The position numbers and the translations under genes were made by a program. A DNA stretch of 64,000 bases from Chlamydiia bacterium (GTDB taxonomy: Bacteria > Chlamydiota > Chlamydiia > Chlamydiales > Rhabdochlamydiaceae). Location: NCBI GenBank assembly GCA_963804085.1, contig CAWDOQ010000022.1:32001-96000 (forward strand). Direction: 5' to 3'. Positions 33,766 through 42,543 of this stretch are shown here, in pieces. The first letter of the stretch is position 1; the number at the start of each line of letters is the position of its first letter. The notes beneath the pieces are model-generated. The model did not search any database and was not told the DNA's origin. It saw only the letters and a program-made list of their open reading frames with translations.

Positions 33766-36741
33766 TCATTCGAGGGATTGGCGCTTGAGCATATCGGCGA
33801 AGAGCCCCTTTTGGGCGGCAAGCTCGTGGAAGGTGCCGGTCTCTATGATTCTGCCGCGGTCGAGCACATAGATGCGGTCGGCATGTTGGATGGTGCTTAG
33901 TCTGTGGGCGATCACGATGCGGGTTACGTTGATCGAATCGAGGTTGGCGCTGACAAGCTCCTGCGTCTTGTTGTCAAGCGCACTGGTAGCCTCATCGAGA
34001 ATGAGGATTTTCGGAGAGGAGACGAGTGCACGCGCAAGATAGAGGCGCTGGCGCTGGCCTCCCGACACTGTGGTTCCTCCCATAGGCATTACAGTATTGA
34101 GTCCCATGGGAAGTTTGAGTAGATCCTCCTCAAAGCCGGAGAGCATGAGCGCTCTTTCAATCTCTTCTACTGTGTAGCTTCCTGCTCCTACGATATTCTC
34201 GTATATGCTTCCGGACAATATTCCAGCATTTTGCAGCACGGTGCCTATCTGCTTGCGCACGCTGCGTAAATCAAGATCTTGCAGGGCGAGTTCATCGTAG
34301 AGCACCTCTCCCTGATCGGGAGTCTCAAAGCCCAAAAGAAGGCGCACAAGGGTCGACTTTCCACAGCCGGAAGGTCCTACGATTCCGATCATCTCTCCGG
34401 GATTTGCCACCATCGAAATGTCTTGCAGGATCCACTCCCCTTCTTTGTCGTAGCGAAACGAGATATGCTCAAGAGCCACTGCACCTTTGAGCTTTGCAGG
34501 CTGCATCTTCTCCCCCGGCTTTTCGAGGGGCTCTTGTAAGATAAACTTAGCCTTTTTCCAATAAGGGATCGCTAAAGACTGGGAAAAAAGGGTCTCGAAA
34601 ATCTCAAGAGCTGCCATGACAAAGAGGTTGAATGCTGTCGAAAAGCCTAAAAATGTTCCCATGCTCATACCGGTCATGGGCTGCGCTAAATTAAAAGAGA
34701 AATGGCCCTTGAAGAGAGAGATGGCCACGGAAAAAAGAACCACTGTTAATAAAAGCGGAAAGAGGCGAAAGACTAAGCTCTGCACAGCATTGGCATACTG
34801 AATTTTGATATTGAGTCTTTTCTTCTCTGCAAAAAGGTGTCCCCAGATTCCAAAAAAGCGGCTTTCGGCTCCAGCCACTCTAATTTTTGCAATTCCTGTG
34901 ATGATCTGGACGACCACTCCTTGGATGCGGCTTGAAAGATCTACGACCTTATCCGTCAGCCTAACTTGAATCGTGATGCAGACGGCATAGATCAGGGCGG
35001 CTAAAAAGACTCCCCCGAGCCCTATAAAAGAGAGCTTCCCGCTATATATAAACATCTGGAGAAGATAGAAAAAGCAGTAAACGCCATCTATTACAAGCTT
35101 TGTCGCATTAGTGACCATATCCGCACGCATCCCTTGCAAGGTGGCAGCGTAATTCATGAGATTGCCCGAAGGGTTTTTGCGAAAAAATGATGCGGGAAGG
35201 TCGAGCAGGCGCGCCCAAAGTGATGTCTCGAGTTGATTTTTTGCTATCCCTTGAATTCTCTGAATAGTGAAGTTCTTCACCAGCAAAAAGAGGGAAGAGC
35301 TAAATGTGATGATGAGTAGGCCCATCGTGAGCTGGGAGAGAAGATTTAGATCTTTTCCAAAGTTCAGTGTGTCAAAAAGGGTCTTCATCGCAAAAGGCAG
35401 AAACATATTCAAGATGCCGCCTAAGAGCGCCACTGTAAAAATCAGGAGAAAGTCTTTTAGGTTATACTTGTAGCACCCTTTGATGAAGTCGATAAATTTG
35501 ATCACCTTTTTGGGAAACCCTTCGTAAAACACATAAGCTTTATCCGAAAGAGAGGAGATAGCCACAGCAAGAGGGACGTGCATCTTTGTGCTGGGGTCGA
35601 CAAGCTCATACCCTTTTTTCCTTTGCAGAAGAGCGACAGCTCCTCCCTCCTTCCAAAATGCTAAAATCGGACCATTTGCGCCCCTCCACCATTCGGGACT
35701 TAGCGTGATTTTGCGAAGATAGATCTCGTTATGCGCTGCAATCTGTCTCACCTGCTTGTCCTCATCGTCATTTTCAGAAAGAGGAGGCATCTGAATCTGG
35801 ATCTTGAGATCTTGACAGACAAGGTCGCAGGCTTTGTAAAGAGGGGTCCCTTCGTGAGCGGAAGGAATGCTGATCTTATCATTTAAAACGGAACCTAACT
35901 TGTAAAATGCCTCTTGATAACGCTCCTCTTCTAAGCGTTTTTTCTTCTGCATTTTCTCAACAGCTTCTTCAAGCCCTTTAGCTCTCTTTTCGCAAAGGCG
36001 GTCAAAGATACGCAGATGGAAATAAGCGATCGATGAAAAGGATTGATCAAATGCACTCTTTAAAAAATCGTTGGTAAACCCGGTCTCCATCTCAAGATCG
36101 CTTTGGACTTGGAGCGAGTGGGCAAAAGAGAAGGGGTAAAGGAGGTTTTTTTCAGCCGAAAACGTGTAGAGGCTTTCACCTGAAAGGGTGGCGCTTCCTT
36201 TTTTAATTTGAAGCCAGGTGACTCTGTTTTTTTCTTCGGGAGCAAGTGTGTGCGTAAGGGCAAGTTTTGTCCCTTCTTTTGCTTCCACCTTTTCTTTCGG
36301 TTTAAAGTAGTAATCGGCACTCTCTCCCTCTTCGGGAGAAACAAAATAGGAGATTAAGTGTAAGACCCACTTATCTAAGAGAAGAGCAATTGCTTGCGCG
36401 CTTGCATCAGATCTTTGGATCTCCTCTCGCACCATTTGCAACGAAATTTTACGCAGGCGTGCGCGCCTTGAGCTTACGAAAAATAGAGAGTAGCTCTTTG
36501 CCTCTTTTGCTAAAGGTGCAGGAAGCAAAAGATCGCCCGGGGCGACATCTAAAAGGAATTGAGGGATAAAGCTCTTGTCTTGGGGAGAGAACATGAATAG
36601 ATCTCCCTCCTCCTCTTCCATCCAGTAAATTGAGGTGGGATCGTCCAAGATAAAGTGGGTGTTTCCTTCAACTACAATCCCCTCTCCCTTTAAAAAAAAG
36701 GCGTGGAGTTCGGGTGGGATTTTAGCGGTTAAATTATACAT
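33766..36741 (-). CDS. NHLP bacteriocin-system ABC transporter, peptidase-less subunit (TIGR03797-like)
   Basis: Long N-terminal extension, LSPEWWRGANGPILAF degenerate C39-like motif, TMD, GPSGCGKST, SGGQRQR, ILILDEATSALD. Confidence 0.88.
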   Translation of the reverse strand: MYNLTAKIPPELHAFFLKGEGIVVEGNTHFILDDPTSIYWMEEEEGDLFMFSPQDKSFIPQFLLDVAPGDLLLPAPLAKEAKSYSLFFVSSRRARLRKISLQMVREEIQRSDASAQAIALLLDKWVLHLISYFVSPEEGESADYYFKPKEKVEAKEGTKLALTHTLAPEEKNRVTWLQIKKGSATLSGESLYTFSAEKNLLYPFSFAHSLQVQSDLEMETGFTNDFLKSAFDQSFSSIAYFHLRIFDRLCEKRAKGLEEAVEKMQKKKRLEEERYQEAFYKLGSVLNDKISIPSAHEGTPLYKACDLVCQDLKIQIQMPPLSENDDEDKQVRQIAAHNEIYLRKITLSPEWWRGANGPILAFWKEGGAVALLQRKKGYELVDPSTKMHVPLAVAISSLSDKAYVFYEGFPKKVIKFIDFIKGCYKYNLKDFLLIFTVALLGGILNMFLPFAMKTLFDTLNFGKDLNLLSQLTMGLLIITFSSSLFLLVKNFTIQRIQGIAKNQLETSLWARLLDLPASFFRKNPSGNLMNYAATLQGMRADMVTNATKLVIDGVYCFFYLLQMFIYSGKLSFIGLGGVFLAALIYAVCITIQVRLTDKVVDLSSRIQGVVVQIITGIAKIRVAGAESRFFGIWGHLFAEKKRLNIKIQYANAVQSLVFRLFPLLLTVVLFSVAISLFKGHFSFNLAQPMTGMSMGTFLGFSTAFNLFVMAALEIFETLFSQSLAIPYWKKAKFILQEPLEKPGEKMQPAKLKGAVALEHISFRYDKEGEWILQDISMVANPGEMIGIVGPSGCGKSTLVRLLLGFETPDQGEVLYDELALQDLDLRSVRKQIGTVLQNAGILSGSIYENIVGAGSYTVEEIERALMLSGFEEDLLKLPMGLNTVMPMGGTTVSGGQRQRLYLARALVSSPKILILDEATSALDNKTQELVSANLDSINVTRIVIAHRLSTIQHADRIYVLDRGRIIETGTFHELAAQKGLFADMLKRQSLE

Positions 36742-42225: not shown

Positions 42226-42543
42226 GTGAAAAAGAAAGAAACGCAAGATGCCCTCGCTAAAAAATGGGCCAAAGTGATTACGAAGGCATGGACAGATGAG
42301 AGCTTCAAGCAGAAGCTACTCAAGAATCCTTCTCTAACGCTACAAGAAAACGGCATCGCTGTTCCTAAAGAGACCAAAATTGAGGTGCATACAGATACCA
42401 GCAAAATCGTGCACCTGGTGATTCCACAAAAACCAGACGAAGAGCTATCCGATGCCGAGCTAAAGAAAGTAGCGGCGGGATTAAGTGCAGGAGCGCCGGG
42501 AGCTGATGCTGCTACTTGGTTCCAAACCGGATTTAAGGCCTAG
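42226..42543 (+). CDS. NHLP leader-peptide family RiPP/bacteriocin precursor
   Basis: AAGGAG RBS and GTG at 42226; KVITKAWTDESFKQKLLKNP, HLVIP and ELSDAELKKVAAG leader end; 20-aa core LSAGAPGADAATWFQTGFKA. Confidence 0.9.
   Translation: MKKKETQDALAKKWAKVITKAWTDESFKQKLLKNPSLTLQENGIAVPKETKIEVHTDTSKIVHLVIPQKPDEELSDAELKKVAAGLSAGAPGADAATWFQTGFKA

Follow-up and report, generated by a model that had tools for sequence, protein, structure and literature searches.

We describe here a peptide-export locus at positions 33766..42543 of a 64,000-nucleotide stretch (the window; all positions are counted along it unless a locus label is given) from the draft genome of a soil chlamydia of the family Rhabdochlamydiaceae, in which a gene for a precursor with a nitrile hydratase leader peptide (NHLP) is transcribed divergently from the genes of a secretion cassette. 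It belongs to a known type of cluster, of which it is a degenerate example; in the phylum this type is common but has received little description. Taken as a whole, it is explained best, with somewhat more confidence than doubt, as a reduced version of the canonical NHLP cluster for thiazole/oxazole peptides (TOMM) and of the three-gene NHLM exporter that belongs to it, in a system that has probably been inactivated recently. We read the cluster as truncated because both modification enzymes are missing, because xerD abuts the precursor gene and because the putative core peptide lacks cysteine.

The exporter genes, all on the reverse strand, are recognisable from their family matches. They encode a TolC-like outer-membrane factor (40483..42114; Pfam OEP, 98.8 bits in two stretches, cut-off 22), a HlyD-type periplasmic adaptor (39156..40490; TIGR03794, 185.2 bits, cut-off 156.2), an ATP-binding cassette (ABC) subunit with a C39 peptidase domain (C39-ABC) and a second, peptidase-less ABC subunit of 991 residues (33766..36741; TIGR03797, 725.4 bits at residues 298-988, cut-off 709.4; Pfam ABC_membrane and ABC_tran). 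The C39-ABC gene is present in two pieces: an N-terminal one with the C39 domain and the first membrane helices (37995..38897; TIGR03796 profile positions 1-282, 334 bits; Pfam Peptidase_C39, PF03412, 115.5 bits) and a C-terminal one with the remaining membrane domain and the ATPase (36734..38026; profile positions 282-709, 557.7 bits), the frame being broken at profile position 282. Each piece alone scores below the TIGR03796 cut-off of 853.3 bits, and the simple sum of the two, 891.7 bits, exceeds it. Both the tolC stop and hlyD start and the two ABC genes overlap by 8 nt. The TolC-like protein lies below the cut-off of the TolC model TIGR01844 (72.6 against 225.15 bits) and matches the general OEP repeat alone; judged from its position in the operon, it would act as TolC. 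Within the C39 domain, the catalytic Cys (in QMEAVECG) and His (in GYNHF) are both present in the translation, from which peptidase activity is predicted, and among solved chains the domain is nearest to the double-glycine motif protease domain 6MPZ (129.8 bits).

An earlier, sequence-only reading of the window had identified this arrangement as an NHLP/NHLM export cassette lying about 110 bp from its precursor. Its gene calls are borne out by the matches to TIGR03793, TIGR03794 and TIGR03797 above their cut-offs, and by the match of the two C39-ABC pieces to parts of TIGR03796; the two catalytic residues that it had named are in place, and the gap measures 111 bp. Its 'four co-oriented genes' are right in identity and orientation, but they amount to five open reading frames (ORFs) as assembled, because a one-base frame break splits the C39-ABC gene.

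The divergent intergenic region (42115..42225), presumed to hold the promoters, separates the tolC start at 42114 from the precursor gene on the forward strand, which comprises 105 codons from a GTG at 42226, with AAGGAG 6 nt upstream. A consensus sigma-70 scan returned no site in this region; it was uninformative, with 4 sites in the whole stretch against a shuffle mean of 8.6. The 85-residue leader (42226..42480), ending ...ELKKVAAG, matches TIGR03793 with 83.3 bits (cut-off 50.9) at residues 24-94 of a 114-residue ORF. Leaders of the double-glycine type carry hydrophobic residues at -4, -7 and -12, a pattern that recurs in L(-12)SDAEL(-7)KKV(-4)AAG before the Leu that opens the core; the site is AG rather than GG, and relatives of the same leader class show AGG, AAG, VAG and SGA. 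The putative 20-residue core, LSAGAPGADAATWFQTGFKA, and its stop occupy 42481..42543 on the forward strand, the last 11 nt overlapping the 3' end of xerD (42533..43408, reverse strand; TIGR02225, 351.1 bits). With no Cys, one Ser (Ser2) and two Thr (Thr12 and Thr16), it is neither rich in Cys, Ser and Thr nor of the lanthipeptide pattern, in which Ser or Thr precedes Cys. A 98%-identical protein with the same core is encoded on another contig, and the cores of the next-closest proteins in the collection, at 51-56% identity, are rich in Cys.

Comparison with relatives points to the loss of modification genes from this site. From a sample of about 400 genomes of the phylum we fetched 14 loci of 13 relatives (labelled L and G, respectively, below; contigs are labelled C), and the divergent layout of the NHLP gene against HlyD, C39-ABC and second ABC is kept in 12 of the 14, answering the earlier suggestion that synteny be examined across Chlamydiota. 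In all three same-family relatives with annotated flanks (G031, G393 and G388), a fused cyclodehydratase of about 750 residues (TIGR03882 and TIGR03604) and then the dehydrogenase SagB (TIGR03605) are encoded directly behind the cassette-adjacent NHLP gene, and in same-family relatives this class of leader precedes Cys-bearing cores. The window has xerD in their place; tblastn with XerD gave no row above 45 bits (the display cut) in the 14 relatives' loci. The closest relative, G031, is 66% identical in TolC, 64% in HlyD, 74% in C39-ABC and 57% in the second ABC. As the sequence-only reading had stated, NCBIfam and Pfam scans of the window found neither YcaO nor LanM nor a radical SAM maturase. 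A six-frame search of the assembled genome (2.13 Mb in 24 contigs, 91% complete, about 5% contamination) likewise gave no YcaO (PF02624), SagB (TIGR03605), TOMM leader-binding domain (TIGR03882), SPASM radical SAM protein, Nif11 leader or second C39 domain. Since all three annotated same-family relatives carry cyclodehydratase and SagB and this genome has neither, the enzyme-less state is best viewed as a secondary loss.

The same search, which the sequence-only reading had proposed, recovered six further NHLP precursors and one frame-broken LanM. The seven precursors above the TIGR03793 cut-off lie on five contigs and all have different cores; five are orphans among housekeeping genes (dnaE, mur/ftsW genes, ddl, holA and others). 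Ser or Thr stands ahead of one or two Cys in five of the six other precursors, the core of the sixth, C17, being without Cys; five of the six, not the same five, carry the leader type that relatives have next to LanM. The single LanM lies outside the window, on contig C19 beside one precursor, and consists of two ORFs (TIGR03897, 384.1 bits at profile positions 3-428 and 378.5 bits at 448-931, cut-off 304 each) split at an A9 run. It has the motifs WCHG and LCCGECG, the latter of the CCG kind that we take to be ProcM-like; LanMs of this type are substrate-tolerant. The closest relative has an intact LanM, 55-58% identical, at a separate locus flanked by eight precursors. Two flavoprotein genes flank the LanM-adjacent precursor here (L014:8475-9800, FAD_binding_3; L014:10177-12399, 740 residues, FAD_binding_4). 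We considered them as tailoring enzymes and leave them as neighbours, given their weak family matches and the lack of a counterpart above 45 bits (tblastn) at the LanM loci of G031 and G099. Three other enzyme candidates were set aside: a radical SAM gene 4 kb from the C17 precursor, considered as a peptide epimerase, is EpmB (357 bits); a Ser/Thr-kinase-like protein of the window at 47354-48493 scores 58.5 bits with the class IV LanL model against a cut-off of 650; and another at 3621-5282, considered as a lanthionine synthetase, has an EgtB/FGE-sulfatase-like C-terminal domain joined to its kinase part.

In a tree built from 37 leaders trimmed at the cleavage motif, two classes separate; because leaders of one genome are nearly copies of one another, the number of effectively independent sequences is below 37. 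Nineteen cassette-adjacent leaders from 13 genomes, the window's included, fall on one side of a branch with support 81/92, present in 80% of bootstrap trees. The five orphan leaders of this genome form a clade (99/96) together with eight leaders that lie next to LanM in G031 and G099. The window leader is the genome's sole member of the cassette class and pairs with G031 leaders (86/87). We read the cassette class, from these sequence groupings, as the putative substrate of the cyclodehydratase and the other class as that of LanM. LanM action on the window peptide is thus unlikely, because its leader belongs to the cassette class. The sequence-only reading had proposed export of a peptide either unmodified or matured in trans; an enzyme in trans does exist, the LanM on C19, but it probably does not serve the window peptide, with its other leader class and no Cys. 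A further locus, L020 (G099:C1:1843000-1862900), from the same-family genome G099, is laid out unlike both the window and G031, with a second-ABC homologue, a stand-alone YcaO frame of 481 residues, four LanM-class precursors and a LanM within 15 kb, and no C39-ABC or HlyD above 45 bits (the tblastn display cut).

A close relative shows where the locus differs. A 7511-nt contig from the soil run X2 differs from the window at 214 of about 5270 positions (about 96% identity). The leader is kept, with 7 differences over 282 nt, as far as 42479, no more than one base from the boundary between leader and core; there, 168 other letters replace the window's 53 (42480-42532); the alignment resumes at the xerD end, and xerD is kept. 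In the sense that it is replaced in so close a relative, the core is hypervariable. The data fit either an evolved peptide or read-through after a deletion as the origin of the Cys-free tail. Forty of 386 differences to X2 are listed, of which 38 fall in hlyD, 29 of these at third codon positions. Because the hlyD differences are mostly at third positions, the cassette appears to have been under purifying selection until recently, and any relaxation has not lasted long.

The C39-ABC frame is broken by a one-base insertion, a doubled T on the coding strand, at 38025..38026, as read from the sequence, with no homopolymer at the site. The X2 contig is shorter by a single base at 38025, and this omission would restore the frame. 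A contig from run X1 spans the break at a depth of 2.4 without the X2-type deletion, thus keeping the extra base, and the same run also has near-identical pieces; runs X3 and X4 contributed short pieces only, none reaching the break. Of 12 cassettes from relatives, 11 have both halves in a single frame (frames determined by hand); the exception, G107, is broken elsewhere. In a public run search for the window, the best runs shared only 0.26 of the sampled words and no RNA run was among those listed. Metagenome pattern scans with one stretch beside the break and one encoding the core gave 0 matches each, and therefore no independent contig of the strain. Programmed +1 frameshifting was rejected as an explanation, the site CTT GCT having neither a recognised slippery nor a stop-codon context. 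Several other, non-essential genes are split: MFS and TauE at A7/T7 runs, and sucA, GH3 and, at one or both of its two breaks, SSF away from homopolymers, which resembles real gene decay. The sucA gene, for the 2-oxoglutarate dehydrogenase E1 subunit (59750-62522), forms two overlapping ORFs covering profile positions 8-741 and 740-917, with no long homopolymer, and the adjacent sucB ORF (58607-59530) covers profile positions 161-408 only, without a lipoyl part as called.

We consider it likely that the C39-ABC break is real, and for the exporter and LanM together we favour, though not strongly, a real recent inactivation over sequencing error. Given the C39-ABC insertion and the LanM break at the A9 run, export and ring formation have probably both been off since recently. 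The sequence-only reading had itself named an inactivating frameshift with relaxed dN/dS across the cassette as what would tell against it; the frame break is present and the X1 contig carries the extra base, but the hlyD differences lie mostly at third positions.

The exporter and leader families are widespread in the phylum. The NHLP leader (TIGR03793) occurs in 53 of 400 genomes, 40 of them over the cut-off, and in 33 of 212 genera, with up to 13 matches per genome; the second ABC (TIGR03797) occurs in 63 of 400 at E <= 1e-100, with 28 over the cut-off. When named genomes were scanned with the second ABC of the window, the only matches were four distant ABC proteins from outside the chlamydiae. 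The LanM dehydratase domain (PF13575) was found in 54 of 401 genomes; its matches include many open frames of about 500 residues, and in 11 genomes, besides the split gene here, the open frame is at least 869 residues. YcaO (PF02624) was found in 35 of 401, including 17 fused forms of 731-793 residues. By hand-made sets, 36 genomes have both NHLP and second ABC; YcaO is present in 15 of them, and 13 lack both YcaO and any LanM dehydratase domain.

If intact, the apparatus would work as follows. By homology to solved peptidase-containing ABC exporters, the C39 domain would cut after the double-glycine-type site VAAG, and the two ABC subunits, HlyD and the TolC-like channel would move the peptide across both membranes, a step that draws on homology to systems including HlyB/HlyD/TolC. 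As no second C39 domain was found, the cassette is on present evidence the sole leader-cutting exporter for all seven precursors; it may therefore have been kept mainly as a shared cutter and exporter for LanM-type peptides, while the window's own peptide would leave unmodified, if at all.

The second ABC has a further feature that may bear on control. Its N-terminal ~230 residues (36052..36741, reverse strand), without a Pfam match even at E 10, are predicted by AlphaFold2 and Foldseek to form two tandem cyclic-nucleotide-binding (CNB)-like beta-barrels followed by a long helix. The AlphaFold2 model, built from a 14-sequence alignment, has a pLDDT of 81.4 and a pTM of 0.73; its top Foldseek matches in the PDB are the tandem CNB domains of PKA-R and PKG (E ~2e-7, TM-scores 0.2-0.3), and an Atlas search with the extension gave, as a lead only, cNMP_binding clusters at 0.84-0.85. 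Most chlamydial second-ABC homologues have open frames of 966-1027 residues, which suggests that the extension is conserved among them. HetC of Nostoc PCC 7120 is described, in the available part of the report, as a peptidase-ABC protein with an N-terminal cNMP-type domain that binds ppGpp and is required for function (PMC10986499). By analogy, the tandem CNB-like domains may gate export by a small ligand. In HetC as in the second ABC, a cNMP-binding-like module stands at the N-terminus of an ABC exporter of the kind used for peptides, whereas here the module is doubled, sits on the peptidase-less subunit, has no Pfam match and is likened to CNB domains through a predicted model.

Several observations weigh against the view of a truncated, recently silenced TOMM cluster. 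The draft state of the assembly, with its 24 contigs, incompleteness and contamination, means that a YcaO/SagB pair could sit in unassembled sequence. Support for the extra base comes from one X1 contig of low depth (2.4), which is perhaps from the source study and possibly lies outside that run's near-identical pieces, and the LanM break falls in a homopolymer, where sequencing errors are typical. None of the seven precursor frames is interrupted and hlyD bears the mark of purifying selection, which suits a working system no less than a freshly broken one. The branch between the leader classes has moderate support (81/92; 80% of bootstrap trees), C19c, the precursor next to LanM in this genome, has a long branch, and the orphan C17 combines a LanM-type leader with a core devoid of Cys, Ser and Thr, so that not every orphan is a lanthipeptide. 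Export of LanM-type peptides by the cassette is deduced only from its being the sole C39 domain found, and the CNB-like match has low TM-scores.

Part of this evidence would suit a system that is working throughout, in which the frame breaks are sequencing or assembly errors or strain noise, the Cys-free peptide is exported unmodified as a class II bacteriocin-like molecule or a signal, and the other precursors yield lanthipeptides. The LanM break in an A9 run, the MFS and TauE splits at A7/T7 runs, the open frames of the other cassette genes and of all seven precursors, the intact C39-ABC of the ~96% relative, the third-position bias of the listed hlyD differences and the 13 of 36 NHLP-and-cassette genomes without YcaO and LanM dehydratase domain all agree with it. 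The C39-ABC break away from a homopolymer, the X1 contig without the deletion and the decay-like splits of sucA, SSF (at least one break) and GH3 do not, and we regard a fully working system as rather unlikely, though it is the most credible of the alternatives. Far less credible, and indeed very improbable, is that the window peptide is matured elsewhere before export, with LanM dehydrating Ser2, Thr12 and Thr16, possibly together with the neighbouring flavoenzymes. A LanM of the tolerant CCG type is available in the genome, the core offers one Ser and two Thr, and NHLP precursors may lie far from their modification genes (PMC2887384, in its available part). However, a core without Cys permits no lanthionine ring, the leader groups with cassette- and YcaO-linked rather than LanM-linked leaders, the flavoenzymes have no counterpart above 45 bits at the G031 and G099 LanM loci, and the LanM itself is frame-broken.

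The NHLP protein might also not be a small-core precursor at all, its domain of about 85 residues being itself the cargo or an exporter regulator and its tail dispensable. In one genus of another family (G032, G034, G041, G045 and G107), the cassette NHLP gene (L025:11577-11798, L026:4234-4455, L027:4664-4915, L031:11167-11418 and L032:11039-11290) ends ...HIVAGY, a single residue (Tyr) past the motif, with dN/dS of 0.06-0.24 in 10 of 10 pairs, indicating purifying selection; no YcaO was found in these five genomes, weak partial LanM-dehydratase matches occur in two of them, and in four of the five species the exporter remains intact. Tails of 3 to 15 residues occur in four more genomes of that other family. 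Against this, in the window's own family the same leader class stands beside a cyclodehydratase with a leader-binding domain and precedes Cys-bearing cores, the classical role of a precursor; export of the whole domain is hypothetical, and the G107 cassette is damaged, with a C39-ABC frame break and a stop in the second ABC. For the window we accordingly hold this reading to be improbable. Somewhat less doubtful, though still speculative, is a broader proposal, that in environmental Chlamydiota the NHLP and exporter module outlives the enzymes and acquires a new role, an unmodified peptide or the NHLP domain itself being exported or active under the control of a small ligand that would act through the tandem CNB-like domains, so that the window peptide would represent an early stage of this change rather than debris. 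It builds on the 13 of 36 genomes without YcaO and LanM dehydratase domain and on the nearly core-free NHLP gene of the genus just described. We retain the truncated and probably recently inactivated TOMM cluster as the preferred explanation.

Set beside known systems, the locus comes closest to the NHLP-TOMM clusters with NHLM exporter of Haft, Basu and Mitchell (2010), with which, in the available part of that paper (PMC2887384), it shares the double-glycine-type NHLP leader and the adjoining HlyD, C39-ABC and second ABC genes. The full textbook set, with fused cyclodehydratase and SagB, is seen in G031, G393 and G388, whereas here cyclodehydratase and dehydrogenase are missing from the assembled genome, the core has no Cys, the C39-ABC is frame-broken, a TolC-like gene belongs to the operon and the host is of an obligate intracellular lineage. 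The sections of that paper at hand name only Victivallis as 'chlamydia group' and state that precursors may lie far from enzyme and exporter genes; Prochlorococcus marinus MIT9313 is also noted there. The peptidase-containing ABC exporters 6MPZ, ComA (8HF4) and PCAT1 (4RY2) share the C39 domain with its Cys and His (129.8, 95.9 and 73.5 bits). The window exporter differs from these in having two different ABC subunits with the peptidase on one only, and in its coupling to HlyD and a TolC-like channel, which is what one would expect in a cell with two membranes. Prochlorosin-type systems pair one CCG-type LanM with many scattered class II lanthipeptide precursors. This genome has in common with them one CCG-motif LanM and hypervariable, scattered precursors far from enzyme and exporter, but its leaders are NHLP rather than Nif11, its precursors number only seven, its LanM is split at an A9 run and the window precursor belongs to another leader class.

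Within the phylum, the antiSMASH survey of Dharamshi et al. (2022) found biosynthetic clusters to be widespread in environmental Chlamydiae and absent from Chlamydiaceae (PMC9666466, section 9). Its Data S10B lists RiPP-like clusters (RiPP, a peptide made by ribosomes and modified after translation), with polytheonamide as top MIBiG match, in two Rhabdochlamydiaceae genomes and one MCF-D genome, and one lanthipeptide-class-ii cluster. These are automatic tallies without a description of exporter, leader classes or enzyme-less forms; its text and 12 supplements make no mention of NHLP, nitrile hydratase, LanM or TIGR03793. As far as the available parts of two other papers go, Marsh et al. (2010) reported a class I cluster in Parachlamydia (PMC3091789) and a 2024 paper a lanthionine synthetase in an algal chlamydia (PMC11317633). 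Our literature searches found no paper on NHLP precursors or the NHLM exporter in Chlamydiae. The earlier statement that no characterised chlamydial example was known holds, as far as these searches reach, for descriptions of the NHLP/NHLM exporter, but the survey does tabulate RiPP-like and class II clusters, and the module is widespread (53 and 63 of 400 genomes for leader and second ABC).

Other features of the window and genome concern the host, its proteins and its repeats. The assignment to a chlamydial host is upheld by a neighbouring outer-membrane protein, whose nearest Atlas clusters are mostly from Chlamydiota, and by four ATP/ADP translocase genes in the genome; F-box, ankyrin and leucine-rich-repeat proteins are frequent. 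At 43495-47306, three tandem outer-membrane paralogues of about 370 residues have no NCBIfam match, the first being nearest to Legionella_OMP/Protochlamydia outer-membrane families. A 1529-residue RHS/YD-repeat protein at 24557-31165 is followed by small ORFs, of which 30007-30492 and 30464-31165 are paralogues that are identical over a long stretch; the whole resembles a polymorphic toxin accompanied by immunity-type genes. The 258-bp spacer between hlyD and the C39-ABC gene contains a GC-rich palindromic dispersed repeat (38978..39114) with arms of about 35 bp, at which X2 contigs break with different flanks. The spacer has a predicted RNA hairpin of -130.1 kcal/mol (z -10.1) and gives 211 blastn-short high-scoring pairs genome-wide. 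A GC-rich unit of about 36-47 bp recurs in inverted pairs throughout the genome, also at 10577-10612, and looks like a REP (repetitive extragenic palindromic) or MITE (miniature inverted-repeat transposable element)-like element. In the closest relative, the position of this spacer is taken by a 213-residue ORF without family match (L028:9436-10077, G031).

One would not expect peptide natural-product systems to be retained by obligate intracellular bacteria with small genomes, and the window offers a dated snapshot of the erosion of one, with the maturase genes deleted, the core replaced, and the exporter and LanM each carrying one fresh frame break, while a ~96%-identical soil relative keeps an intact exporter. 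The comparison yields a testable pairing, in which two leader classes are tied to two enzyme types, and it points to NHLP/exporter pairs that are free of enzymes and even of cores. If the module does outlive its enzymes in environmental Chlamydiota, its product could serve an intracellular bacterium as a secreted signal or effector and not as an antibiotic. And if chlamydial symbionts protect their hosts by secreted peptides, as the 2022 survey speculated (PMC9666466), such loci would be obvious candidates.

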